Source: a phage. Taken from it: a stretch of 62,283 bases of DNA. The stretch lies in sequence record PZ793367.1; one strand, given 5' to 3'. The position numbers were made by a program, and so were the translations under genes. This document shows positions 13,913-61,790 of this stretch, one piece after another. Each line of letters opens with the position of its first letter. Within the stretch, counting starts at the first letter, position 1. The notes beneath the pieces were generated by a model. It saw nothing but the letters and a program-made list of their open reading frames with translations, ran no database searches and had not been told where the DNA came from.

Positions 13913-14653
13913 GTGTACCAGTCTCAATCACTCGTACTCGCCCAGGCAGGCATCATTAGTATCGACCGGACTGACCAATTTGGTAACTTTAGCGACGGTA
14001 CTATCAGCGACGTCATCAGAGACACCATCGTACCTAACTATTCTCGCTGCACTTGCGCAATGGCAAGGAAGAGTCGAGGGCAGTACCGACTCCACTTTGA
14101 GGGAGACGTCAACATCGCCCTTTCCACTAATCAGGGGAATGTGATCGGCTTCTCGATGTTTGACTACGGCGGTCTGACGGTGCGTGCTGCGGTCAACCCG
14201 TACGGTCGTATCTTCTTCATCTCGGATACCGGATACGTCTATCAGGATTCCGTGGGGGCCAGTAACGATGGTGGTGAACGGTCATCAGTATTCCGTACAT
14301 CCTTCGCCAACCAGGGTGACCCGGATACCCGTAAGCGGTACCGCCGTATGGACATGAGTATCCGCGCGCAATCTTACCTTAACGCGCGTGTCGTTTTCTC
14401 GTACAATAAAGGCGCATCCACTCCGCAGGCATCGGTCGAATCTGGCCTGTTAGTGTCCGGCGGCGGTCGCTGGGATTTGTCGCTGTGGGGGCAGGTCTAC
14501 TGGGATGCCACGGAAAACCCGACAATCTCATCTGATATTGACGGCTTAGGTTTCGACATCAGCACGATGCTGTACATCCGGTCACGAATCCATCCGCAGT
14601 TTACCGCAGAGGATTTATCATTCGAATGGTCACCACGTAGAAAGGTACGATAA
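13913..14653 (+). CDS. virion structural protein, start codon uncertain
   Basis: 246-aa ORF beginning at GTG with no RBS; frame is open from 13721; see finding on candidate -1 frameshift. Confidence 0.5.
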   Translation: MYQSQSLVLAQAGIISIDRTDQFGNFSDGTISDVIRDTIVPNYSRCTCAMARKSRGQYRLHFEGDVNIALSTNQGNVIGFSMFDYGGLTVRAAVNPYGRIFFISDTGYVYQDSVGASNDGGERSSVFRTSFANQGDPDTRKRYRRMDMSIRAQSYLNARVVFSYNKGASTPQASVESGLLVSGGGRWDLSLWGQVYWDATENPTISSDIDGLGFDISTMLYIRSRIHPQFTAEDLSFEWSPRRKVR

Positions 14654-16278
14654 TGGCTAACACTTATTTCAACTACATGGACCCGGTGGAACCGGGCGAC
14701 CGTCTGGAGTCAACAAAATACAACGGCGACTTCTCCGCGATTGCCCGTGCTTTCGACATCCTGCCGTCTCCAGATGCGCTGGCCTCCAACACCGGAAACT
14801 ATGCCCGGTCACAAGGTACATCTACGGCGTACACTGTAACCCTGCCGCGCTTCGATGGTAGCTTCGGTTACATCACTGGTATGCAGGTGTTGCTCAACAT
14901 TCACGTTAACAACACCGGGGCGGCCACGCTCAACATTAACGGACTCGGCCCTAAGCCACTCGTCAACCTGACTACCGCGCTCGGCCCACTGGTGGCTAAC
15001 GATCTGCGTGCAGGCACCATCTATTCCATCCGTTATGACGGTACCCGTTTCCAGGTAGTCAACACTGTTTCCGGTGCGGTAAACGCATCGCAGACCGCAG
15101 CTACCCAGGCAACTACCGCCGCCACAAACGCTGGTACATCCGCCACAAACGCAGCCAATAGTGCCAGCGCCGCAGCGACAAGCGCGAGTAATGCAGCCAG
15201 CAGCGCCAGCGCCGCAGCTTCCGGTGTTACTGCCGCCGCAAACTCTGCCAGCGCCGCATCGACGTCTGCAACCAATGCAGCAAACTCTGCGTCTGCGGCA
15301 AACACATCTGCGGGTAACGCTGCCAGCAGCGCCACGGCAGCATCCGGCAGCGCCACGGCAGCGGCAAACTCCGCTACGGCAGCGGCAGGTAGCGCCAGCA
15401 CGGCTAACACCCGCGCCACGGCAGCGGCAGCAAGTGCTACAGCAGCGGCAAACTCTGCGACTCAGGCAGCGGCCAGTGCTCAGACTGCGCTCGACGCTAT
15501 CGGTGACGCATCGTTCAAAGCGGCGGTGATGGGTGTCCTGTTAACCAGCACGCTGGACGTGGGGACCGTCAAGTTCTATGCGCTGAATATTGATCCGAAC
15601 ACCAAATATCCCGGTACCACCTGGGTACGCCTCCCGGTATCGCAAAGCATCCGTACATCCCTGGCCGACGCAAGTGACGTCATGACCACTGTAGGTGCCG
15701 ACTCGGTAACGCTGGCTGTAGCCAACATCCCGTCGCACAACCACACCGCTACCGTCACCATCAATAACACGGACTTGGGTACTAAGGCGTCAACCAGCTT
15801 TGACTACGGTACTAAAACGTCGAGCGCTCACAACTATGGCACGATCACGATGTCCAGTACGGACCTCGGTACCAAAACTACCAACAGCTATGATTACGGC
15901 GCTGTCACCTCGTCGTCCGCTGGTGCACATACTCACACAGTACCGGTGTACACCGCCCTCGGTACAGCCAACACAATAAAGTCAGCATCCACAGGTAGTT
16001 CAAGTTCAGGTAACGCCGCAACGTCGTCCGCTGGTGCGCATACTCACACGTTCGACCTTCCGTCGCATAACCACACGGTTGCAATCGGTAGTCACAGTCA
16101 CACGATGAACCTGGGTACTCACTCCCACACCGTAGCGGTAGGTAGCCATAGTCACAGCGTGGTCGTAGGGAGTCACACCCACACAACCACAATGACGCTG
16201 GGTAATACCGGTACTGGTCAGGCTTTCAGCATCGTGGCAAAATCTACTATCCTTGTCGGCTGGAGACGTACCGCATGA
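14653..16278 (+). CDS. tail fibre protein 1
   Basis: Ala/Ser-rich collagen-like repeats (NSASAAATSASNAASSASAAAS...), C-terminal His-x-His repeats (SHNHTVAIGSHSHTMNLGTHSHTVAVGSHSHS). Confidence 0.8.
   Translation: MANTYFNYMDPVEPGDRLESTKYNGDFSAIARAFDILPSPDALASNTGNYARSQGTSTAYTVTLPRFDGSFGYITGMQVLLNIHVNNTGAATLNINGLGPKPLVNLTTALGPLVANDLRAGTIYSIRYDGTRFQVVNTVSGAVNASQTAATQATTAATNAGTSATNAANSASAAATSASNAASSASAAASGVTAAANSASAASTSATNAANSASAANTSAGNAASSATAASGSATAAANSATAAAGSASTANTRATAAAASATAAANSATQAAASAQTALDAIGDASFKAAVMGVLLTSTLDVGTVKFYALNIDPNTKYPGTTWVRLPVSQSIRTSLADASDVMTTVGADSVTLAVANIPSHNHTATVTINNTDLGTKASTSFDYGTKTSSAHNYGTITMSSTDLGTKTTNSYDYGAVTSSSAGAHTHTVPVYTALGTANTIKSASTGSSSSGNAATSSAGAHTHTFDLPSHNHTVAIGSHSHTMNLGTHSHTVAVGSHSHSVVVGSHTHTTTMTLGNTGTGQAFSIVAKSTILVGWRRTA
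15100..15470 (+). repeat. in-frame Ala/Ser-rich coding tandem repeats within tail fibre 1
   Basis: Periodic GCx-rich units encoding AANSASAA-type repeats. Confidence 0.6.
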
Positions 16279-17891
16279 GTAACCAATATTACAACTTTAT
16301 CAATCCGGCTGAAGCGGGTACGATTGTCGACCCGTTCGACTACAACCGTGAGATGGAAAAGATCACCGAGGCTTTCTCGGTGGTCCCGCCTGCTTCCCAG
16401 TTAACTTCCGGTACCCTGAACTACTCAACGGATACGGGTACCGGGAACGATCACATCGCCACGCTGGATGACTTTGATACCGACTATGTTGCTGGGAGTA
16501 ACGTTGCACTCCGAATCAATGACGCTTCTACTGGACCGTCTACCCTGAGTGTAAACGGGCTGGCCGCTAAAGACGTCACGCTGTCAGTGTTCGGCGCGGT
16601 GGCGGCAGGTGACCTGTTTGCTGAAGGCGTCTACACGTTCGTATTCAACGGTGAGCGTTTCCAGATTCTGGAGATGGGCGCACGCTATTACACGACAGCC
16701 TTCGAACAGCTTTCGATCGCTCAGGCTAAAGCAGCACTCGCGGCGGCCAGTGAAGCTACGGCACTGAGTGAGCGTAACGCAGCAGCAGCGTCGGCGGCAA
16801 ACGCCCTCGCGTCAGCAAACGCTATTACCGCGTCCAAAAATGCAGCGGCGGGTAGCGCCACGTCAGCGGCGGGTAGCGCCACGTCAGCAGCAAACTCAGC
16901 AACGTCAGCGGCGGGTAGCGCTACGTCAGCAGCAAACTCAGCAACGGCAGCGGCAGGTAGCGCTACGGCAGCGGCGAACTCTGCGACGGCAGCGGCGAAC
17001 TCTGCTACGGCTTCCGACGCCAGCGCAACGGCGGCGGCAAACTCCGCAACGGCGGCGGCAGGTAGCGCGGCGGACGCAGCAACTTACGCGCAGGAAGCTA
17101 TCGACATCGTTAACGCGCCGAACTTTCTCGACCGCGTGCAGGCGGCTGTTCTCGAACTGGAATTGTTCGTCGGTTCCACCGAGTTCTTTGACGCTAACAT
17201 TGATCCGAACGTTAAATATCCGGGTACCACATGGGTGCGTCTACCAGCGTCCACGACTATCCGTATGTCCAACGCAACGGGCACCGACGTGCTGGCCGCA
17301 ACAGGTAGCGACAATGTAGCTTTGACTGTCAGCACCCTACCATCACATAGTCACGCTGTCACAGCGGGTACAGTCAGTTCTACAGACCTCGGTACCGACA
17401 CGCTGGCATCTGTCGACCTCGGTACCGACACGCTGGCTAATTTTACCGACACGGCCAAAACGTCATCCAGTACGGACCTCGGTACCAAAACTACCAGCAG
17501 TTATGATCCTGGTGCAATAGCAACCAACTCCACGGGTGCACACACTCACACAGTCACTCCGTATGCTGCGGAAGGAAGCAACGCGCTTATTAAATCTTCA
17601 GATTTAGGTGCCGTGAAAGCGGGCGACTACACAACATCCTCATCAGGTGCACACACGCACAGCGTCAACCTGGGTGCACACACGCACACTGTAGCGATAG
17701 GTAGTCACAACCACACGTACGCGCTGGGGTCACATACTCATACCGTGGCGCTGGGGTCACATACTCACAACGTTGCTCTCGGTAGTCACAACCACAGCAC
17801 GTCAACATCCGTGACGTCGGTTGGTTCCGGTACGGCGTTCTCCGTGGTAGAATCGTCTCTAATCTTAGTCGCATGGTACAGGAGCGCATAA
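16275..17891 (+). CDS. tail fibre protein 2 (paralogue of fibre 1)
   Basis: Shares N-terminus (YFNYMDP vs YYNFINP), Ala/Ser repeats, HxH repeats and C-terminal LILVxWYR motif with the upstream fibre. Confidence 0.8.
   Translation: MSNQYYNFINPAEAGTIVDPFDYNREMEKITEAFSVVPPASQLTSGTLNYSTDTGTGNDHIATLDDFDTDYVAGSNVALRINDASTGPSTLSVNGLAAKDVTLSVFGAVAAGDLFAEGVYTFVFNGERFQILEMGARYYTTAFEQLSIAQAKAALAAASEATALSERNAAAASAANALASANAITASKNAAAGSATSAAGSATSAANSATSAAGSATSAANSATAAAGSATAAANSATAAANSATASDASATAAANSATAAAGSAADAATYAQEAIDIVNAPNFLDRVQAAVLELELFVGSTEFFDANIDPNVKYPGTTWVRLPASTTIRMSNATGTDVLAATGSDNVALTVSTLPSHSHAVTAGTVSSTDLGTDTLASVDLGTDTLANFTDTAKTSSSTDLGTKTTSSYDPGAIATNSTGAHTHTVTPYAAEGSNALIKSSDLGAVKAGDYTTSSSGAHTHSVNLGAHTHTVAIGSHNHTYALGSHTHTVALGSHTHNVALGSHNHSTSTSVTSVGSGTAFSVVESSLILVAWYRSA
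16770..17060 (+). repeat. in-frame 21/42-bp coding tandem repeats within tail fibre 2
   Basis: gcggcgggtagcgccacgtcagc units repeated, encoding AAGSATSAANSATSAAGSATAAANSAT. Confidence 0.65.
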
Positions 17892-22393: not shown

Positions 22394-22434
22394 ATGTGCT
22401 ATGCTTCCCCTATCAACAAGGGGGAGCATTTCTA

Positions 22435-25400
22435 ATGGCTAGTAACATCGACCTTTCTGGACTGGACTTATCCCAGCCAAATCAACAACCTGCAACGAAG
22501 AAGTCTGAAAAGACTGCACCTGCTATTGACCTGTCGACGGTTAACTTTGACCTGAGCGACGTAGACTTTTCCGGTATTGGAAATGAGAAGGCTGTCACAG
22601 AACCAGCAAAAGAAGATAGCTGGGGCGACGTAATTTACAAATCTCTCGCCGCGATGCCTGAGCGTATGCAACGTTCATGGCAGGGTATCAAACAAGGCGT
22701 GGCCGTTAAAGGTCAAGACCTGACTGACGGGGTGCTGGCTGAACGCCTGCGTAACGATCCGTCATATGCTGCCGAACTGGGGATTGACCCGGCTACCTTT
22801 ACCGCTGCCGAAGGCGACACGTATGCGACCAAACTGCAAAAGAATAAAGCTCTCTACGCCGCTATTGATAAAGCGAAGGCCGCAGAACTGAATAAGGATG
22901 CCGACTTTGTTGCCGCGCGTGATGAAGGTCTTCGCCTGTCAAACGAGATTGCCAAAACTGCACCGAAGACTGGTGACGAGTGGTCAGCTAAAAACCTGGT
23001 ATCCACAATCCTCACTGGCGCGCAGGACATGTCTCCGGCAATCCTGACGTCCATCCTGTTGAAGCGTCCGGTCGCTGGCCTCGCTGAGATGACTGGTCAG
23101 GCGTACGGTTCCTACTATCAGGACTCAATCGACAAAGGTCTGTCTCCGGCAGAAGCCGATAACCGCGCTACCATGTTCGCCGCACTGGAACCAATCACTG
23201 AAGCGGTACCGCTGGGCCTCATCATGAAGAAGGGTGCGACTAGCCTGACTGACCTCGGTAAGTCTGCAATGGCTGAAGGTATCCAGGAGTCCGCTACCCA
23301 GGCTATCCAGAACGGTTACGACATTGGTGTGCTTGACGAAGATATGACGGTAGGCCAGTTCCTGAATGACGTGGCGTTCTCCGGTGTAACTGGTGCTGGC
23401 GTAGGTGGCGTGCTGCATGGCGCGGTGCAAGCTCCCGGCATGGTCAAAGACTGGAAGGATAACCGCTCTGTTAACAACGCTATCGGTGACGCTGCGGCTG
23501 AGTCCGGTCAGGCGGTAGAAGGCGTGGACCCGAACGAGTACGACGCTGTGCGTGCTGAGATGGGCGGCGGTGACGTGCTGGACCAGATGGTTGAACAGGC
23601 ATCTCCTGCAATCACTGAAGCTCGCAAGTCTGCCTACATGGAAGCGCGCGCCCAGGGTATGTCTCCGGCTGAAGCGATGGCCGCATCCCGTGAAGTCGGT
23701 GAAGTCGACGCTATGGATCAGATGGTCAGCGAACTGTTCGACTCCCCGGACTCCATCTACTATGCGAACAAGGCAAGCGCCACTAACGCACCGCAGTCTG
23801 TAGCACAGATGGTACAGCAGCAGGTAGCGCAGGGTGACATTGGTCCGCTTCCGGGCGAGACTAAAGGTCTGCCGTCTCCGGGGCAAACTTCCACCATCGC
23901 TATGCCCGGTCCAGTTGCGCAGGTTAAAGAGGCCACTGGCTACAATCCACGCGGTGCGGCTGAAGAGTCTCCGGTACTGGCAGCAGTCCAGCAGAAACTG
24001 GAAGCGCCAGCACTGCCGCCGCAGGTTACTGAAGCTGTGGTACCGCCAGCACTGCCGCCTAAAGCTGAAGTGACTCCGCCTGCGTTACCGCAGATTGACG
24101 TAGCCGCTGCACTGGAACCTACCGTTCCTGCCGCTGAGCCAGCCGCTGCCGAGGTTAAACCGAAGCCAGCACTGTTTGCCCGTACCAAAAAGAAAGCCGC
24201 GCCAGAAGTCGATACAGAAGCACTGGCCGCCGAAGAAGCACGTCAGGCAGAACTGAAGGCGAAAGGTGACGAGGCTGTAGCCAAATACGTTGAGCGTGAA
24301 TCCGTGCGTCCGGCGTTACCGGGTAAGAAGCCGCCAGCTATTCAGGTCACCAACAAGATCCTGAAGGAAGCCAACGAGCGTGGCGTTGACGTCGGCAATA
24401 AAGTGAACTGGAACGGCAAGGAGTATTCCGTCGATAAATTCCAGGGCCGTGCTGTACGTCTGGTTGATGAGAACGGCAACGGTCACATTGTTGATGCCCG
24501 TGAAATCAACGTGCCATCTGTGGTACCGGAAGGTATGAAGCGTGTATCCCAGGAAACCAAAGACGCCCGTGAGCGTTACGACCTGGCCCCTGTAGAGTTC
24601 GAAGATGAGCGCAACCTGGGTGAGATGGTTACCGATGCACAGCAGGCGACCGACGATGTACTGGCGCAGTCTGCCGAAGTTCAGCGTGACCTGGGTGAGA
24701 TGATCGCTGAGAAGGAGAAGGACAACGCCGCAATTGAAGGTGAGTCCACTCGCGTTACCGACGTTGAAGGTCGTGTTGGTTTTGAACCAGTGGAAGGTAC
24801 CGACCTGGACGGGAAGTATGCGAAAGACTCCCACGGTGAAGTCCGCAAGATTACTGGCGTGCAAGGTCGTCGCTTCGTGCTGGACAATGGCGACATCATG
24901 ATTCGTCGCATTGGTGACACCAACGTGATGGATGCTCCACCTAAAGGCGCACGTAAAGCGATGTCGATGGAGGAACGTATTGTAGCTAACACGCTGCAAG
25001 GTATGCTGCATTCACTGAACGATACCAAGCGTCCGCTAAACAAACTGCGCGAAAACATGTCTCACGCTAGTAATCAGGTTGATGAACAGTACCGTCATCT
25101 GTACGCGCCACTGAAGGGTAAGACTCGCGCGGCCATGCGTAAGGAACTGGAAGACCGCATGTCCAGTATCGCTGAGCAGTCACCTAAAGGTCTGAGCAAA
25201 GAAAGTCAGGCGACGGCTGACCGTCTGCGTGAGAAGTCTGCCGCACGCGTCGAGTCTTTCGAGAAGTCACTGGAAGATTTCACGCGTGGTATGAAACCGC
25301 TGGTACGTCGCAACTACATTCGCGCCCTGGAGAAGATCCAACCGGATGGTATTACCCTGAAGGAAACCATCGACCGTGCGTATGCCCGTGGCGATAAAAT

Positions 25401-28400
25401 TGACTCCCGTGACATGTCGGCACCAGCCAAACATTACGTGGCCTACAAAGAAGCTCGCGTACCGAAGAAGACTGACAAGCCGGACGTTACACCGGGCGTC
25501 GACTATCACACGCTGGTAGGTAAAACTTTCGAGGAAGACGGCGAGACGTTCACCGTCAAGTCTATTCACGATACGTACCTGGCTACCGAAGACTCACAAG
25601 GTCGTCGTGAGATTTTCGGCAAGGACTACGCTAAGCGTAAGATTGACAAGCAGTCCGGCGCGGCCAGCGTTAAACCTGCGACCGAGAAGAAAGGGATGTC
25701 GCCGGAAGATGTAGCCGTGGTTGCTACAGACTTCCTGAAGAAGTTCAAAGGTGCACAGGCGATCAACATGTCCGTCATGCAGCGTCAGGAAGACATGGGT
25801 ATCGACCTGCCGGAAGGTAGCGTACTGCTCGGCTTCTACGATGCTGGCAACGTGAGCGCCAAGCTGATCTCTGAAAACCTGACCAGCAAGGAAGAAGTGG
25901 AAGCGCTGTTGCGTCACGAAATCATCGTGCACTACGGCCTGCGCGCTCGCCTGTCTAAACCGGAATACGACGCTGAGATGGATAAAATCCTGGCCGCTGA
26001 TAAGTCCCCGGCGCTGGCGAAGTATTTCAAAACTGTACGCGAGCAATACAGCGACCTGTATGACATGAACTCACCTGACGCACAACGCATGATGGCTGAA
26101 GAAGTCCTGGCGCTGGCTGCGGAAAACCCGGCTATCCTGGAGAAGTCCAACGTCATCACCCGCGTGATTGAAGCTCTGCGTCAGTTGATGATTAAAGCCA
26201 AACTGATTGACGGTCGCGCCAGCATGGAGTCAGTACGCCAGCTTATTCAGGCCAACGCTCAGTACCTGCGTGACAACACTGTCAACCGTGACGACGTGCG
26301 TAAGTCTCTGCCGCCGATGCAGTACAGCGCGCCGCGTAACTTTGCCGCCAGCCTGAAAAAGAAAAATGACATCGAGTCTGCGGAAGTGGACGAAGACATC
26401 AAGCAGGGTATGCGTGACACCATGTACCGCGATGACCGCTCTCTGTTCCAGCGCATCAAAGACATCATGAAAGACAACGGTCTGACGATGGAAGGCTTAT
26501 ATCAGAAAGGCGTGGATGACCTGTACACCATCGCCAAATATGAGAAGGCTGGTAACAACGGTGAACTGCGTCAGGGTAAAGAGTCAGCGTACAAGATGGC
26601 AATGCTGGCGAAGAACGTGAACAGCACCGTGGCCGTCGCAATGAACCACGGCGCTCCGGTATACAAAGACGGTGGCATCAGCCTGAACAAGAACACCAAA
26701 GGCTTCACCGAAATCTTCAAGCCCGTGCTGGAGATGAAAGGTAACATGCTGCCAGTGTGGGAATACTGGGCGGGTGCTGTGCGTGCGCAGCGCTTGATGA
26801 AGGAAGGCCGCGAAAACCTGTATACCGAGAAGCAGATCAAAGACATTATCGACTATGTTAACCGTCGCCCGGAAATGCGTAAGGTGTTCAACCAGGCGCA
26901 CAAAGACTGGCGTGAGTTCAACAAAGCTATCCTCGACTTCGGTGAGCAAACTGGCATCGTGGATCCTGAACAGCGTAAACTGTTCGAGTCCGACGATTAC
27001 GTTCCGTTCTACCGTGTGGATGAGGAAGTGGACCGCGTGACAGCACCGTCTGGTAAACGTGGCCTCGCTGATCAGTCTTCCGGTATCCGCCGTCTGAAAG
27101 GTGGCGCTGGTAAGATGGACATCCTGGAGAACATGGCGCGTAACGTTAACCACATGATCACCTCCGGCTACAAGAACGCGGCCATGCAGAAGGTGCGTGA
27201 CATCACCATCAACGCAGCGCTGGAAGAAGTACCGCATAACTTCAAGCCAGTCGGCATCAGCAACGAGCAGATGAAACGTGCGCTGACCAACCTGGGTCTG
27301 AAGGTTGAAGGTATGACCGCTGAGCAGATGGCGCAATACTCCAACCTGTTCACCGCAGTAGCACCGCAGGGCGCTAACATTATCTCCGTGCGTGAAGGTG
27401 GTAAACCGAAGTATTACGAAGTGACGGATCCTCAGTTGCTGGAAGCTATCGCAGGTGTTGGCCCGGAAGCCGTTGATACCCTCATCAACATTCTCGGCTG
27501 GCCTAAGCGTGTGTTCACCGCAGCCGTGACGTCAACGCCTAACTTCGTTATGACCAACTTCGTACGTGACGTGATGGGTAACTATGTGCAGATGGCGAAA
27601 GCAACTGGCCGCAACGATACACCGACGATTGTCAAAGATGTACTGACATTCCGTCCGTTCTTCAAAGCGTTCCAGGGTGCGATGCGTTCCGTCCGTAACG
27701 ATGCGATGGCTGTCGATTATCATGTGGCTGGCGGCATGATGGGTGGCTACGACAACTCACGTCCAGAGTCGGTTGCCAAAAACATGCGCAAACTGGAGAA
27801 AGGCGGCACCATCATTAACTCACCGAAGAAGCTGTGGGAAATGTACAGCAAGTTGCTGACCGCATCTGAACAGGCCACGCGCATGGGTGTTTACGAAGAT
27901 GTCCTGAAGCACACTGGGGATCCGGTGGAAGCTGCATACCAGTCTAACGATGTGCTGAACTTCAGCCGCCGTGGCAGCAGCCGTTTGACTAAAGCTGTAA
28001 TGGCGATTACCCCGTTCCTGAATGCCCGTGTGCAGGGTCTGGACCGTATGGTGCGCGGTGGTAAAGAGAACCCGAAAGCCTTCATGCTGAAAGGTGCTCT
28101 GCTTGTTGGTGCAACGATGACCCTTATGGCAATCAACGCAGACGACGAACGTTACTGGGCGCTGCCGGAACACGAACGTGATTCCTTCTGGATCATCTTC
28201 GCTGGCGACACTCGCTACCGTATCCCGAAACCGTTCGAACTGGGCGCACTGTTTGGTACTATCCCTGAGCGTGCATTCGAAGCGCTGTACCGTGACGACC
28301 GTATGTTCGGTGCACGCATGGGCTTCATGCTGGGTAACACCTTCGCAATGGACTGGCCTCAATTCTTCAAGCCGATCTATGAAGACCAGACCAACATGAA

Positions 28401-29028
28401 CAGCTTTACTCAGCGTCCGGTTGTACCGCAGTCACTGCAACGTCTGGAAGCTAACCAGCAGTACAGCACCACGACACCGGAGTGGATTAAGGATGTGAGC
28501 AAGGCGTTACCTGAAGCTGCCCCGGAATGGATGCGTAGTCCGCTGCGTCTCCAGCATATGATTGAAGGTTACACCGGAACAGTCGGTCAGTACATCATCG
28601 GCGTAACGGACGTGGCCTATCGCAAAGGAACCGGTACCGAAAAAGTTGCCCCGGCTAAAAAGGATTTCGATTACCCGGTGGTGAAAACTTTCGTACGTGG
28701 CGGTGTGTCCGGCGACAAATACACCGACCGTCTGTACCAGATGAGCGAGAAGGCTGGTCAAACGTACGGTACCCTGAAGGCGTACAAAGACCAGAAGAAC
28801 ATGCAGGCGTATCGGGAATTTAAAACCGAGAAGGCCAGCGTGTTGTCTGCCCGTAAGTCAATTGAGAAGGGCGTTGCCCGGATGCAGAAGTACAACCGCC
28901 AGACGAAAGAGATTTACGCGAACGACAGTATGTCACCTGAAGCGAAGCGTGCAGAACTGGATGCCTTGCAGGTTAAGAAGAACGAACTGGCGAAAGAATT
29001 GAGTGACAAATATTGGATGTTGTTTTAA
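22435..29028 (+). CDS. giant virion-associated protein (putative internal/ejection protein)
   Basis: 2,197 aa from ATG at 22435 (AAGGGGGAG RBS); last gene of late operon; hydrophobic helices near C-terminus; no RNA polymerase motifs recognised. Confidence 0.6.
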   Translation: MASNIDLSGLDLSQPNQQPATKKSEKTAPAIDLSTVNFDLSDVDFSGIGNEKAVTEPAKEDSWGDVIYKSLAAMPERMQRSWQGIKQGVAVKGQDLTDGVLAERLRNDPSYAAELGIDPATFTAAEGDTYATKLQKNKALYAAIDKAKAAELNKDADFVAARDEGLRLSNEIAKTAPKTGDEWSAKNLVSTILTGAQDMSPAILTSILLKRPVAGLAEMTGQAYGSYYQDSIDKGLSPAEADNRATMFAALEPITEAVPLGLIMKKGATSLTDLGKSAMAEGIQESATQAIQNGYDIGVLDEDMTVGQFLNDVAFSGVTGAGVGGVLHGAVQAPGMVKDWKDNRSVNNAIGDAAAESGQAVEGVDPNEYDAVRAEMGGGDVLDQMVEQASPAITEARKSAYMEARAQGMSPAEAMAASREVGEVDAMDQMVSELFDSPDSIYYANKASATNAPQSVAQMVQQQVAQGDIGPLPGETKGLPSPGQTSTIAMPGPVAQVKEATGYNPRGAAEESPVLAAVQQKLEAPALPPQVTEAVVPPALPPKAEVTPPALPQIDVAAALEPTVPAAEPAAAEVKPKPALFARTKKKAAPEVDTEALAAEEARQAELKAKGDEAVAKYVERESVRPALPGKKPPAIQVTNKILKEANERGVDVGNKVNWNGKEYSVDKFQGRAVRLVDENGNGHIVDAREINVPSVVPEGMKRVSQETKDARERYDLAPVEFEDERNLGEMVTDAQQATDDVLAQSAEVQRDLGEMIAEKEKDNAAIEGESTRVTDVEGRVGFEPVEGTDLDGKYAKDSHGEVRKITGVQGRRFVLDNGDIMIRRIGDTNVMDAPPKGARKAMSMEERIVANTLQGMLHSLNDTKRPLNKLRENMSHASNQVDEQYRHLYAPLKGKTRAAMRKELEDRMSSIAEQSPKGLSKESQATADRLREKSAARVESFEKSLEDFTRGMKPLVRRNYIRALEKIQPDGITLKETIDRAYARGDKIDSRDMSAPAKHYVAYKEARVPKKTDKPDVTPGVDYHTLVGKTFEEDGETFTVKSIHDTYLATEDSQGRREIFGKDYAKRKIDKQSGAASVKPATEKKGMSPEDVAVVATDFLKKFKGAQAINMSVMQRQEDMGIDLPEGSVLLGFYDAGNVSAKLISENLTSKEEVEALLRHEIIVHYGLRARLSKPEYDAEMDKILAADKSPALAKYFKTVREQYSDLYDMNSPDAQRMMAEEVLALAAENPAILEKSNVITRVIEALRQLMIKAKLIDGRASMESVRQLIQANAQYLRDNTVNRDDVRKSLPPMQYSAPRNFAASLKKKNDIESAEVDEDIKQGMRDTMYRDDRSLFQRIKDIMKDNGLTMEGLYQKGVDDLYTIAKYEKAGNNGELRQGKESAYKMAMLAKNVNSTVAVAMNHGAPVYKDGGISLNKNTKGFTEIFKPVLEMKGNMLPVWEYWAGAVRAQRLMKEGRENLYTEKQIKDIIDYVNRRPEMRKVFNQAHKDWREFNKAILDFGEQTGIVDPEQRKLFESDDYVPFYRVDEEVDRVTAPSGKRGLADQSSGIRRLKGGAGKMDILENMARNVNHMITSGYKNAAMQKVRDITINAALEEVPHNFKPVGISNEQMKRALTNLGLKVEGMTAEQMAQYSNLFTAVAPQGANIISVREGGKPKYYEVTDPQLLEAIAGVGPEAVDTLINILGWPKRVFTAAVTSTPNFVMTNFVRDVMGNYVQMAKATGRNDTPTIVKDVLTFRPFFKAFQGAMRSVRNDAMAVDYHVAGGMMGGYDNSRPESVAKNMRKLEKGGTIINSPKKLWEMYSKLLTASEQATRMGVYEDVLKHTGDPVEAAYQSNDVLNFSRRGSSRLTKAVMAITPFLNARVQGLDRMVRGGKENPKAFMLKGALLVGATMTLMAINADDERYWALPEHERDSFWIIFAGDTRYRIPKPFELGALFGTIPERAFEALYRDDRMFGARMGFMLGNTFAMDWPQFFKPIYEDQTNMNSFTQRPVVPQSLQRLEANQQYSTTTPEWIKDVSKALPEAAPEWMRSPLRLQHMIEGYTGTVGQYIIGVTDVAYRKGTGTEKVAPAKKDFDYPVVKTFVRGGVSGDKYTDRLYQMSEKAGQTYGTLKAYKDQKNMQAYREFKTEKASVLSARKSIEKGVARMQKYNRQTKEIYANDSMSPEAKRAELDALQVKKNELAKELSDKYWMLF

Positions 29029-50974: not shown

Positions 50975-51005
50975 TCGATTAACCCTCTGTGTTGTTGGTA
51001 AACTA

Positions 51006-51034
51006 AATATAATTGATGGCTTCCATGCCGTCAA
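51006..51034 (-). promoter_or_regulatory. sigma70-like promoter TTGACG-17-TATATT
   Basis: Nearly identical over about 35 nt to the promoter at 61016-61044. Confidence 0.5.
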
Positions 51035-51043
51035 GTAAATCAT

Positions 51044-51256
51044 TTACCAACTAGCAAAACATTTATCAGTCGGTTGGCGGATCATCCATTCACCATAAAT
51101 AAACTTAATCGTTAGAAACGTGTCGTTGCGGTTACCTTTAATCGCCTTAACTTTTAGCGCCCGTCTAAGGTTCCGCCAGCGCGGCTCCCATACCAGATCG
51201 CCAGGGTTAAGTTTGCCGTAGGTAGTCAGGCGGAAGTGTGGTTTATTTGTTGCCAT
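51044..51256 (-). CDS. hypothetical protein
   Basis: Internal ATG at 51256 chosen to limit overlap with upstream gene. Confidence 0.35.
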   Translation of the reverse strand: MATNKPHFRLTTYGKLNPGDLVWEPRWRNLRRALKVKAIKGNRNDTFLTIKFIYGEWMIRQPTDKCFASW

Positions 51257-56742: not shown

Positions 56743-57139
56743 AATTAGTACCTTTGATTGAGCAGGTTAGAAAGAGATCCATAACATCATTCGTCCACTG
56801 TTCCCGGTCGCCTTCCTGATCGGCCAGTTTGAACATCTCCACATTGGGCGCTACCAGGTAGACCCCGGTTGTCGTGAATGACAGGCGCACGCTGGAGTAA
56901 TTGAGGCATTCATTGACAGCGTGACGCGTGTCATCGGTGCACGTTCTCGTACTCCACATAAATTTGAACTTGCTATCAGGACGGTGGACACGCACAGCCA
57001 TCTCACCGTCTGCCGTCTGCACAATACCGTAATGCCTCCCGGTTGACTGGTAGCGCACCCTGGCCGCTTTGATAGCCGCCGGGATAGACGTATATCGCCG
57101 ATAACCCGGCGCGCCTTTAAGCTGGTTGGGATGCGGCAT
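56735..57139 (-). CDS. hypothetical protein sharing a motif with the downstream gene
   Basis: SVRLSFTTTGVYL...MFKLADQ...EQWTNDVM. Confidence 0.5.
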   Translation of the reverse strand: MPHPNQLKGAPGYRRYTSIPAAIKAARVRYQSTGRHYGIVQTADGEMAVRVHRPDSKFKFMWSTRTCTDDTRHAVNECLNYSSVRLSFTTTGVYLVAPNVEMFKLADQEGDREQWTNDVMDLFLTCSIKGTNYA

Positions 57140-57452
57140 CGGCTGAACCCCAGGCGCGATCTATCAGTCCTTGCAGCGCTCCCAGTTGTGTAGCGTGGTA
57201 CCCGGCATCGCCCGGATCGCGGTCAACGTAGGCCCAGGCGTGGCCCTCAGTAGTCCGGCGCACCTTGCCGAACGCTACGTTGTTGGCGTCAACGAGGGTA
57301 TAGGTTATGGTGTGTTTACCCTCGCGCACCATGCGCCAGCCTTTAGGAATGCGTAACTGTTGCCCGTAATACTCAAAGATTGAATAGTTGACGTCGTCAA
57401 TCTGTGCTATCAGGTCTACCAGGGCGGCGCGGATCTCTGCAATAGTTTTCAT
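57117..57452 (-). CDS. small protein of the xPxGW family
   Basis: LRIPKGWRMVREGKHTITYTLVD ... ALQGLIDRAW. Confidence 0.5.
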   Translation of the reverse strand: MKTIAEIRAALVDLIAQIDDVNYSIFEYYGQQLRIPKGWRMVREGKHTITYTLVDANNVAFGKVRRTTEGHAWAYVDRDPGDAGYHATQLGALQGLIDRAWGSADAASQPA

Positions 57453-58069
57453 AATTCATTGGCCTTATTGTTGAGCCACTTGATGGCGTCTTGTTGAGTT
57501 TTAAAAGTGGTTTTGTATTTGCAATCCCACCAGATTGCATGGTCACCGTTTAACTTCCGGTATGCTGATCCACGTCTGAAGCCGCGCTGGTCGCTCAGGG
57601 TGATGGTGTCGCTTTCATGGTTGATGGCTATAACCCAGCCTTTAGGCAGATTTACCGGTACGCCCAGGAAATGCGGCTGATTCTCGGCTGGCACGTTGAC
57701 GGAGGCATTACTCAGGCAGCATAACGCGCCCGGTAAATGACTGAAGTCGCCAATAGTCACACCGTCAAAGCTGACGACATAACGGTTGGTTGTTTTTGTC
57801 TTGCATACGTGACCACGTTGACGCGTCCGGTCATGCAGGGTAAACACTACACAGCCTTGAGTGTGCTGTACCAGATCCCAATACTCAGGGAATGCGATAG
57901 ACACGCCGCAGACATCAATGATTCGCGTATTTGGTGCAGCGTCAACATGCGGCGTTAAGTGCGCGATGATTGCGTCAAGCGCCTCGATTAACTCATAAGC
58001 CGGGGCCGTCTTCGGGATAATGCAGGCATAATCATCCCGCAGGTTCTGATAGTAGCTTAAAGTTTTCAT
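57449..58069 (-). CDS. protein with C-terminal xPxGW-family domain
   Basis: VNLPKGWVIAINHESDTITLSD ... QQDAIKWLNNK. Confidence 0.5.
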   Translation of the reverse strand: MKTLSYYQNLRDDYACIIPKTAPAYELIEALDAIIAHLTPHVDAAPNTRIIDVCGVSIAFPEYWDLVQHTQGCVVFTLHDRTRQRGHVCKTKTTNRYVVSFDGVTIGDFSHLPGALCCLSNASVNVPAENQPHFLGVPVNLPKGWVIAINHESDTITLSDQRGFRRGSAYRKLNGDHAIWWDCKYKTTFKTQQDAIKWLNNKANEL

Positions 58070-58320
58070 TTGGTTAATCCCTCGATTGCCTCACGGGCGT
58101 GACGCTTTGCGTCGCCGTAAGCGTTGGGCGAATACTGCGACGTTTCATGACCAGCAAACCACGCGTTAACTAATAGCTCTTTGATTAGCTCACTGTTGAG
58201 CAGGTCAAACGCGCCGTTAGTGTAAGGGTGCGTGTAAGGATTGGCCTTATTACGCTGCGTAGGGTCGCTATCTTTATCAGTCATGTGGGCGTTGTTGATC
58301 CACTTCTCGAACTCTGTCAT
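58066..58320 (-). CDS. hypothetical protein
   Basis: 84-aa ORF. Confidence 0.5.
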   Translation of the reverse strand: MTEFEKWINNAHMTDKDSDPTQRNKANPYTHPYTNGAFDLLNSELIKELLVNAWFAGHETSQYSPNAYGDAKRHAREAIEGLTK

Positions 58321-58493
58321 TTAAATTTACCCTCCAGTATTTTAGCGATGACCGCATCAATCCACATATCACGCTGCGACGGCTCATAGGTGTGGCTGAG
58401 CACCTGGCCGATAGTAGCACCTGGGGCAAACGTGGTAATCAATATCACTGTATGCCCGATAAACTTTAATTTAATGTTACTGATTGTTTGCAT
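58317..58493 (-). CDS. small ORF (58 aa) flanking the paralogue array, unlisted in ORF track
   Basis: ATG overlaps the end of the upstream paralogue, ATGA overlap with downstream gene; weakly similar to the 56-aa ORF at 59318-59488. Confidence 0.35.
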   Translation of the reverse strand: MQTISNIKLKFIGHTVILITTFAPGATIGQVLSHTYEPSQRDMWIDAVIAKILEGKFK

Positions 58494-58767
58494 GGTCTTT
58501 CACCCACTTGATGCGCTCAGGGTTAAGGTGCATGGTCGCGCCGTCAAACTCTATTTCGAATCGGTATTCACCGCCGAACGGGTAGATCGGATCGAGTCCA
58601 GCCTCTTCCAGTTGCTTCTTAATATGCCAGCGCGGCAGGCAATACGGCGCTTGCGTGACTGACATACATAATCCAACGTGACGATAGAACGGCTGGCCTT
58701 CCGGCGCGCCTTTATCCAGCCAGGCGGCATAGTCGTTATAGAATTGCTGTAATAATTTATTTTGCAT
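58477..58767 (-). CDS. paralogue 3 of tandem YPFGG-motif family
   Basis: MQNKLLQQFYNDYAAWLD...YPFGG...HLNPERIKWVKDHA. Confidence 0.6.
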   Translation of the reverse strand: MQNKLLQQFYNDYAAWLDKGAPEGQPFYRHVGLCMSVTQAPYCLPRWHIKKQLEEAGLDPIYPFGGEYRFEIEFDGATMHLNPERIKWVKDHANNQ

Positions 58768-59044
58768 GGTCTTTCACCCATTGAACGCGTAAAGGGTTGA
58801 GGTGCATAGCCCGATTCTCTAAATCTATATCGAACTGAGGCACGCCGCCGAACGGGTATAATGAATCGAGTCCGGCCTCCGCAAACTGTTTTTTAATTTC
58901 GTTAAGAGGTACGCGGTACGGTCGTTTCATTGCTTGCGAGCATAAACCCTCGCCGCGCGTAAATTGCTTATCGTCTTCCGGCGCGCCAGCGTCAAGCCAG
59001 GCCGCGTAGTCGTTATAGAATTGCTGTAAGTTTTTATTGTGCAT
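58757..59044 (-). CDS. paralogue 2 of tandem YPFGG-motif family
   Basis: MHNKNLQQFYNDYAAWLD...YPFGG...HLNPLRVQWVKDHA. Confidence 0.6.
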   Translation of the reverse strand: MHNKNLQQFYNDYAAWLDAGAPEDDKQFTRGEGLCSQAMKRPYRVPLNEIKKQFAEAGLDSLYPFGGVPQFDIDLENRAMHLNPLRVQWVKDHAK

Positions 59045-59321
59045 GGTCTTTTACCCACTTGATGCGTAAAGGGTTGATGTGATGGTCGCTATTGAATGAC
59101 TTAGTAAGATAATCCGCCTCACCGTCATTGAAAGGATACTGAAAATCAAGACCAGCCGCCTCGAACTGGCGACCCATCTCGATATAAGCGTCACGGTCGC
59201 CGCCGAACTTCCCCAGGTTATGACATAACCCAGCGTCTCGATAAAACGGTTGTTTGTGTGGCGCGCCAGCGTCAAGCCACGCGGCGTATGCGTTATAGAA
59301 TGCCTGTAATAATTTATTCAT
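59034..59321 (-). CDS. paralogue 1 of tandem YPFGG-motif family
   Basis: MNKLLQAFYNAYAAWLD...YPFNDG...HINPLRIKWVKDHA. Confidence 0.6.
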   Translation of the reverse strand: MNKLLQAFYNAYAAWLDAGAPHKQPFYRDAGLCHNLGKFGGDRDAYIEMGRQFEAAGLDFQYPFNDGEADYLTKSFNSDHHINPLRIKWVKDHAQ

Positions 59322-59488
59322 TTCAATAAATCCTCGATTGCTAAGTGGATGCCTACCAGCCGCGCCCGGTCACGCTGGGCTTTAATGCGGCTCACTACAG
59401 TGGCGAGGGACTCCCCGCCGTACAGGGTGATTTTAAACAGGGTGGTCACCCGGCTGTTATATTTTGCGCAAAGCACGTAAGGCTTCAT
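59318..59488 (-). CDS. small ORF (56 aa) flanking the paralogue array, unlisted in ORF track
   Basis: MKPYVLCAKYNSRVTTLFKITLYGGESLATVVSRIKAQRDRARLVGIHLAIEDLLK; overlaps both neighbours. Confidence 0.35.
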   Translation of the reverse strand: MKPYVLCAKYNSRVTTLFKITLYGGESLATVVSRIKAQRDRARLVGIHLAIEDLLK

Positions 59489-60794: not shown

Positions 60795-60977
60795 TTAATA
60801 GAAAGATACGTAAGTCGCAATGCCTTTGGCGTCATCGTTAGGCAGCGCCTTGATTGCCAGGTCGTAACCTGCATCGACTTTGGCCTTTGCGCTTTCCTCG
60901 CTGTAACCCCACATTGTCAGAATGGTCACTACGTTTTCTTTATTTACTACTTTGAGCGCTTTGGTGATACGTGCCAT
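60795..60977 (-). CDS. hypothetical small protein
   Basis: 60-aa ORF just downstream of promoter P1. Confidence 0.4.
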   Translation of the reverse strand: MARITKALKVVNKENVVTILTMWGYSEESAKAKVDAGYDLAIKALPNDDAKGIATYVSFY

Positions 60978-61015
60978 TTTGTTTCTCTCTTTCGTTAATT
61001 GGTTGGTGCAATCTA

Positions 61016-61044
61016 AATATAATTAGTGGCGTCCCTGCCGTCAA
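61016..61044 (-). promoter_or_regulatory. sigma70-like promoter TTGACG-17-TATATT
   Basis: -35 at 61039-61044, -10 at 61016-61021; member of the conserved early-promoter family. Confidence 0.5.
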
Positions 61045-61049
61045 GTGTT

Positions 61050-61790
61050 TTATTTATGATTTTGTGACGCGCTTAACACTTTTTTGCGTGTTTCCTTACG
61101 GTGGCGGCAGTAGTCGAGATAAGCCGCCTTAAGTGGCGCGGCGATATGTGGCAGGATGTCGTGATGGCCTCCGGCACGTTGCACACCCATGATCATTTCA
61201 TTTAGTAACCACTGAGCGAAGTCGGGCCGCTCCATTACATCACGACCAGTAAGGAGGCGATCACCGCCTGGCATTAAATGCTTTGCGTCAGTGTAACGAA
61301 CCGACCATTGACCGCCGTCCGGTCGAGCGGCCAGGGCTGGGATTTGCTGATAGTAATGCTCACAGCCTTTAGCTGGCGCATGGTTGACCCACATGATTAA
61401 GGATGTGTCAGAATGATAAGCCTTCGCACGGTTACGCCGGAACGCATCACGCTTTACCGCTGCACAATGTGTACACCCGGCGTTAAGCGTATATTTGATT
61501 GTATTACTGCACACCTTACACGGTCGCCCGGTGTATGTGCTCTCTCCTTTATGTACAGCGATCTCCCTGGCTAACTTAGCTTTCTGGTATTCCCTGCTAA
61601 CATTCTTGTCCCTTGCACACTGCACACACCCACGGCTGGAAACGTAGCGTTCACGCTCCCCACAATGGCGGCAAGGATTCTTCGCGAGGAATACGGCAGC
61701 CTTGCGCGTCGGAAGCTGTGCCCCGTCCACGGTGTCATCTACCAGGTCGGCCCCGTAGTGGTTCATGATGTCGTCAATGTTGATGGTCAT
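61050..61790 (-). CDS. Cys-rich zinc-binding protein, first gene of leftward early operon
   Basis: Four CxxC pairs (CRHC, CVQC, CKVC, CTHC) in the N-terminal half; AGGAAA RBS. Confidence 0.5.
   Translation of the reverse strand: MTINIDDIMNHYGADLVDDTVDGAQLPTRKAAVFLAKNPCRHCGERERYVSSRGCVQCARDKNVSREYQKAKLAREIAVHKGESTYTGRPCKVCSNTIKYTLNAGCTHCAAVKRDAFRRNRAKAYHSDTSLIMWVNHAPAKGCEHYYQQIPALAARPDGGQWSVRYTDAKHLMPGGDRLLTGRDVMERPDFAQWLLNEMIMGVQRAGGHHDILPHIAAPLKAAYLDYCRHRKETRKKVLSASQNHK

Follow-up and report, generated by a model that had tools for sequence, protein, structure and literature searches.

Lytic phages are known for hyperplastic regions of small early genes, as exemplified by the early genes of T4 and T7. 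The closest described relative of the phage DNA studied here is Escherichia phage PTXU04 of the genus Xuquatrovirus, a podovirus with a genome of about 61.6 kb and non-permuted ends. Three consecutive genes of this phage, gp85-gp87 (PTXU04_00085 to PTXU04_00087), are annotated as hypothetical proteins, and a transcriptome-wide CRISPRi-ART knock-down screen scored gp84, gp85, gp86, gp87, gp88 and gp89 all as 'Not Fit' (PMC11879866, supplementary file 16). The HHpred annotation of gp84-gp89 in that study is "unknown" (PMC11879866, supplementary files 8, 16), and beyond the fitness call its supplements make no comment on gp85-87 (PMC11879866). In the literature on PTXU04, Pondi and Bas95 we found no description of paralogy, subtypes or a shared junction among these genes, and literature searches by PHROG number, or for anti-defence genes arranged as tandem paralogues, returned nothing on PHROG 2510, the family to which they belong.

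The window, by which we mean the whole stretch of 62,283 nucleotides that was analysed, carries the counterparts of gp85-gp87 in the same gene order. Its array region is ~97% identical to PTXU04 at the DNA level, whereas Pondi and HelliStehle/Bas95 are weaker DNA matches to the window. The array belongs to a leftward operon of closely packed genes not far from the right end of the genome, and its features are the following:

59318-59488, minus strand: upstream ORF of 56 aa, corresponding to PTXU04 gp88; its stop and the start of copy 1 share 4 nt (ATGA)
59034-59321, minus strand: copy 1 (subtype A), ORF of 95 aa; protein 100% identical to PTXU04 gp87
59041-59057, minus strand: junction motif between copies 1 and 2, coding strand TGGGTAAAAGACCATGC, with one mismatch; the ATG of copy 2 lies inside it
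58757-59044, minus strand: copy 2 (subtype B), ORF of 95 aa; protein 100% identical to PTXU04 gp86
58764-58780, minus strand: junction motif between copies 2 and 3, TGGGTGAAAGACCATGC, exact; GGTGA 6 nt before the ATG of copy 3
58477-58767, minus strand: copy 3 (subtype C), ORF of 96 aa; protein 99% identical to PTXU04 gp85
58490-58506, minus strand: junction motif between copy 3 and the 58-aa ORF, an exact match
58317-58493, minus strand: downstream ORF of 58 aa, corresponding to PTXU04 gp84; its ATG lies within the WVKDHA codons of copy 3, with an overlap of 17 nt

The initial annotation had described the three genes as a tandem triplication of one small gene family, and their paralogy is borne out by the alignments. 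The proteins can be aligned over their full length with 41 invariant columns, share 51-60% identity, and find each other in pairwise BLASTP with E values of 5e-29 and 5e-25. When the family HMM was run against the six-frame ORF set of the whole window, it matched these three copies and no further one. At the DNA level, conservation among the copies is concentrated in a 5' block of 96 nt (67-76% identity) and a 3' block of 42 nt (81-86%), which recur along the array every 277-280 nt. The reading frames are intact in every relative, showing that the ORFs are conserved as coding sequence in related phages.

The recurrence of one DNA motif at each downstream junction, also proposed from the first inspection, holds as well. 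The motif GCATGGTCTTTCACCCA occurs three times in the window (exact at 58490 and 58764, with a single mismatch at 59041), against a chance expectation of 0.01. Stop and start overlap as ATGCACAATAA between copies 1 and 2, as ATGCAAAATAA between copies 2 and 3, and as ATGCAAACAATCAGTAA between copy 3 and the 58-aa ORF, the overlaps at these three junctions being 11, 11 and 17 nt long. Read on the coding strand, the 17-nt motif specifies the conserved C-terminal W-V-K-D-H-A and has the ATG of the next gene inside it, and GGTGA stands 6 nt 5' of the ATG at every one of the three junctions. GGTGA is complementary to UCACC at the 3' end of 16S rRNA, and this complementarity points to a Shine-Dalgarno-like element. 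Since the motif holds both GGTGA and the ATG, each copy would supply the ribosome-binding site and start codon of the gene downstream of it, and the array genes are probably translationally coupled.

Both small ORFs that bracket the array exist and are annotated in PTXU04, as the first inspection had indicated; the weak mutual resemblance that it saw between them did not withstand comparison. BLASTP of the 56-aa against the 58-aa ORF gave no alignment at E<=100, and hhalign of their orthologue profiles returned a probability of 1.3% (P=0.039, 21 columns), so that no relationship between the two is detectable. Scans of the flanking ORFs against Pfam, NCBIfam and PADLOC gave nothing usable, and the 56-aa ORF had no family match in PHROG either. 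A gp84-like 58-aa ORF is intact 3' of the array in 11/11 loci examined, with an invariant C-terminal half. It is unannotated or uncalled in Pondi (L002, OP136151.1), L009 and L012, where annotation leaves an apparent gap of ~157 nt. On the 5' side, the position of gp88 is occupied by a gene of 53-56 aa in related loci. HMMs of both flanking ORFs found no partner beside family members in other phages, which makes these ORFs specific to Xuquatrovirus.

We compared 12 Xuquatrovirus-like arrays: that of the window, those of three GenBank genomes and eight from metagenomic contigs; a profile search with a 17-sequence alignment gave only five IMG/VR loci. Copy number varies from one to three: six arrays hold one copy, four hold two, and only the window and PTXU04 hold three. 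A tree of the copies from 11 of the 12 arrays resolves four subtypes, A to D, with 70-94% identity within a subtype and ~41-60% between subtypes. The window carries A-B-C, Pondi and L009 carry D-A (Pondi thus has two copies to the window's three), L012 carries A-C and L019 carries A-B. Single-copy genomes have subtype A, B, C or D, Bas95 being the one with a lone B copy, and across all arrays the order of subtypes is invariably D-A-B-C. In the tree, copy 1 of the window groups with Pondi_00020, L009 copy 2 and L014; copy 2 is 87-94% identical to the sole Bas95 copy and to L019 copy 2; and copy 3 is 85-90% identical to L012 copy 2 and L017.

This arrangement does not agree with the local, recent expansion that the initial annotation had envisaged. 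Synonymous divergence among the copies of the window is saturated (dS 1.4-2.0), so the "triplication" is old, and each copy is closer to its subtype partners in other phages than to its neighbours in the same array. The 70-94% identity of these orthologues, as against 51-60% between neighbours, makes the array a combination of old subtypes, and recent lineage-specific tandem duplication was rejected on both counts. Recombination has left a direct trace in two further loci: the first copies of L012 (3001-3285) and L019 (3001-3288) are D/A chimeras, in which codons 1-27 match subtype D at 99% and 88-92% DNA identity and residues 28-80 belong to subtype A. They record unequal recombination in the conserved 5' block, by which a D-A pair was reduced to a single gene.

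Evolution at the codon level is of a different kind from that first proposed. The genes had been described as rapidly diversifying, but whole-gene dN/dS is 0.07-0.26 overall and 0.07-0.25 among orthologues of one subtype (0.07-0.23 for copy 1 and 0.09-0.14 for copy 2 against their orthologues), and purifying selection maintains each subtype. Variability peaks at residues 35-46 and 65-80, where segment pN/pS is highest, at 0.53 for residues 65-80 of subtype A and 0.68 for residues 35-46 of subtype D. No whole-gene dN/dS or segment pN/pS exceeded 1, in small samples from which a few selected sites could escape, and the signature of an arms race is thus absent at the level of codons. The fast-changing feature is which subtypes are present, not the codon sequence.

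The family reaches far beyond this genus. All three copies give full-length matches to PHROG 2510, a profile without assigned function (E 7e-26, 1e-21 and 6e-23 for copies 1, 2 and 3), and weaker ones to PHROG 6418 and 2176; the homologues from Phapecoctavirus and from a P2-like prophage match the same profiles. The PHROG 2510 profile has 219 positions, of which the window proteins cover 6-107 only; the remainder may reflect longer or two-domain members, which exist. An exhaustive profile search at E<=1e-3 recovered 1,629 cluster representatives, several of them two-domain fusions of about 200 aa; at E<=1e-10 the number is 670. By tblastn we located 342 places across 162 phage records, including Phapecoctavirus, T1-like, N4-like, Rhizobium, Achromobacter and Delftia phages. 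Phapecoctavirus genomes have 2-4 copies each, and in ESCO5 three copies are dispersed. Named members of the family are all called "hypothetical protein". A connection with plasmid leading regions was considered and rejected: the family matched in only 1/72,556 plasmids, and this near-absence led us to drop the link.

The remote-homology search and structure prediction proposed with the initial annotation yielded a confident model and no recognisable relative. AlphaFold2 predicts copy 3 with five helices (pLDDT 94.2). Neither the three copies, 123 homologues nor the longer fused members came near a curated cut-off in Pfam-A or NCBIfam, the PADLOC-DB defence profiles gave no family at E<=1 for the array proteins, and searches of the PDB by sequence profile and by fold found no similar solved structure. 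The profile matches to 2LKY and 3FBX are at chance level; the former, the DUF3349 protein MSMEG_1053, has a weak N-terminal likeness (aaWL-aG-PEG-P) over 50 residues (E 0.79 with the 17-sequence profile). The array proteins are soluble, contain many aromatic residues and have a mildly acidic pI of ~6.1.

Conservation within the family is concentrated on few positions. Across 238 members, W16, C34, P63, F64, R85 and W88 are ~100% conserved, followed by Q52 and N82 (92%) and by H80 and H92 (82-84%). According to the model and the family alignment, C34 lies at the N-terminus of helix 2, following an invariant Gly-Leu. Two diverged family domains are repeatedly found fused in metagenomic proteins of 190-244 aa (P0121-P0130, P0138, P0176 and P0240), and in some of these one half has lost C34 or H92. 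The model of one natural two-domain protein is a single compact unit (pTM 0.81), and a dimer as the working unit would be compatible with it. A 441-aa protein, P0241, has one family domain inside a larger polypeptide that ends in a CxxC-rich motif.

Where family members elsewhere were examined, they lie amid small genes without known function. Examples are the left end of an N4-like phage, ESCO5, the early operon of a P2-like prophage, and a T4-like contig in which the homologue follows the DNA ligase gene. In the T1-like phage Sf12, genes for a helicase and a VRR-NUC nuclease precede the homologue. The neighbour genes are entirely different between phage lineages. The E. coli P2-like prophage homologue P0105 (L021-L023, 8001-8330) has a Dam-type methyltransferase gene on one side and a C5 DNA methyltransferase gene on the other and lies upstream of gpA, which encodes the replication initiator; neighbouring stops and starts overlap there.

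In the window, one candidate control element was located upstream of the leftward block that contains the array:

61016-61044, minus strand: candidate sigma-70-like promoter, TTGACG, 17 nt, TATATT, matching 10/12 consensus positions

This site may drive the array block; the frequency of promoter-like consensus sites does not exceed that in shuffled sequence. It falls within a 47-nt element that is present twice (51000-51046 and 61010-61056, 81% identity); each element has TTGACG-17 nt-TATATT on the minus strand, making the two candidate promoters for two leftward operons. Going by gene position and the consensus promoter matches, the array may be expressed early.

Several other genes of the window deserve a brief description. 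The array is followed immediately, on its downstream side, by another small family of paralogues: a 206-aa protein (57449-58069, minus strand) holds two copies of a domain shared with the adjacent 111-aa protein (57117-57452, minus strand), with BLASTP E values of 4e-4 and 0.005 and the motif PKGW...TITL-D. PTXU04 has gp82 at this position, with a length of just 360 nt; an indel therefore distinguishes the window from PTXU04 there. Upstream of the array region, a 60-aa gene (60795-60977, minus strand) appears to be the same as the DUF7421 (PF24196) genes of L014, L015 and L017; in L015 the DUF7421 gene is present twice. Far from the array, two adjacent genes of ~540 aa (14653-16278 and 16275-17891, with repeats at 15096-16183 and 16800-17796) share periodic repeats of 21 nt, which are GC-rich and contain many GCN codons, and CAC-rich repeats of 27 nt, and look like paralogous fibre-like proteins with internal repeats. 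The ORF of 2,210 aa at 22396-29028 (plus strand) is the counterpart of PTXU04 gp25, a 'polyvalent protein' reported to be essential in the CRISPRi-ART study (PMC11879866).

The 'Not Fit' scores of the PTXU04 genes mean that they are individually dispensable on the laboratory host, and natural relatives exist without one or two of the subtypes; the array thus consists of accessory genes. What these genes do can be approached from this setting. The explanation that we favour, at a little under an even chance, is that the proteins are accessory host-interaction proteins, active in counter-defence or host takeover, forming a repertoire on a conserved scaffold. Within it, three long-diverged subtypes (A, B and C) of the soluble, phage-specific, five-helix ~95-aa PHROG 2510 family form one cassette. 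The junction being embedded in the W-V-K-D-H-A codons, an unequal crossover between copies would rebuild a working junction, and phage lineages would gain and lose members of a small repertoire. The proteins would act by binding: residues 1-34 and 81-93, with W16, C34, P63, F64, R85 and W88 essentially invariant, would provide the conserved aromatic scaffold, and the subtype-specific segments 35-46 and 65-80 would set which host protein, or which variant of it, is recognised. An anti-defence or host-takeover role is a plausible guess, as had also been suggested initially, and the anti-defence reading would fit the setting of small genes near a genome end, their dispensability and their patchy spread among phages. 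One published phenotype bears on it, since according to the BASEL study Bas95, with its single subtype-B copy, is highly sensitive to restriction-modification systems; this speaks against subtype B having a strong anti-restriction role. A fuller joint statement, possible though in our view doubtful as a whole, would describe PHROG 2510 as a large and so far unrecognised class of phage proteins for counter-defence or takeover, with a fold absent from solved structures and an invariant Cys/Arg site, whose subtypes are exchanged as cassettes through recombination at self-regenerating junctions and whose three-gene array in the PTXU04 lineage is a specificity repertoire against the variants of one host target.

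Further observations stand against the favoured explanation: no homology, fold or experiment ties the family to a defence system or a host target, pN/pS stays below 1 in every segment, the promoter matches that would speak for early timing do not outnumber those in shuffled sequence, and the polar residues (C34 and R85 at ~100%; Q52, N82, H80 and H92 at 82-92%) are better explained by a catalytic or ligand site common to the family than by a binder with a variable surface. This conservation of polar residues is the basis of a somewhat unlikely alternative, in which all copies share one activity at a candidate invariant polar site made up of these six residues, and several copies give dosage or hetero-oligomers, not different targets. 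The proteins could then be small thiol-dependent enzymes or binders of a metal, nucleotide or small molecule, possibly dimeric. The persistence of the site across 238 diverse members points in this direction, as do the place of C34 at the helix 2 N-terminus behind Gly-Leu and the two-domain fusions that are common among the best matches, one of them with the compact, dimer-compatible model. The invariant residues of the same 238 members are mostly aromatic, Gly or Pro, as a scaffold would show, which speaks for the favoured explanation. Even a shared activity might act in counter-defence, for instance if it sequestered a signalling molecule.

We regard as unlikely that the proteins act inside the phage programme, as modulators of replication, transcription or DNA modification. 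Such a role would agree with the homologue between two methyltransferase genes just upstream of gpA in the P2-like prophage, and with those following the helicase and VRR-NUC nuclease genes of Sf12 and the DNA ligase gene of the T4-like contig. Redundancy among copies would explain the null single knock-downs, in which the genes were targeted singly by CRISPRi guides directed at near-identical junction sequences (PMC11879866). Yet copy number and subtypes vary in close relatives, half of which are single-copy with differing subtype, and this would be unusual for core regulation; moreover, no match to a DNA-binding fold rose above noise, the proteins are mildly acidic, and the gene neighbours of homologues are wholly different between phage lineages. 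The least probable reading, already disfavoured and very improbable in our judgement, is that the genes have no role and are non-functional leftovers or selfish filler. The three genes and both flanking ORFs were dispensable in the published knock-down screen (PMC11879866), and a function is annotated nowhere, as this reading would have it. Against it stand strong purifying selection within subtypes (dN/dS 0.07-0.25), frames that are intact in every relative, and a large family with invariant residues and a confidently predicted fold.

The array thus looks like an ordinary dispensable accessory cassette of real, conserved genes that databases know as hypothetical. What is described here is its structure, the turnover of subtypes and the footprints of recombination, the genes themselves having already been annotated. 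If it is a counter-defence or takeover module, a function would be gained for a protein represented in well over a thousand sequence clusters, which span T1-like, T4-like, N4-like, T7-like, Phapecoctavirus and P2-like phages, and the existing knock-down toolkit would make PTXU04 a convenient phage for testing this. The subtype cassettes, together with a junction that bears the putative ribosome-binding site and start codon, are a clear example of how a small phage gene array expands and contracts.

Compared with known systems, none of the defining features of known anti-defence families was found in the array proteins, and unlike the anti-defence proteins with deposited structures, to which they show no sequence or fold similarity, they are related to this class by analogy, not membership. 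The analogy lies in the organisation of the locus. Like the anti-defence clusters and hyperplastic early regions of lytic phages, the array of the window is made of small, dispensable genes packed near a genome end, whose presence varies in close relatives and is patchy across unrelated phages.
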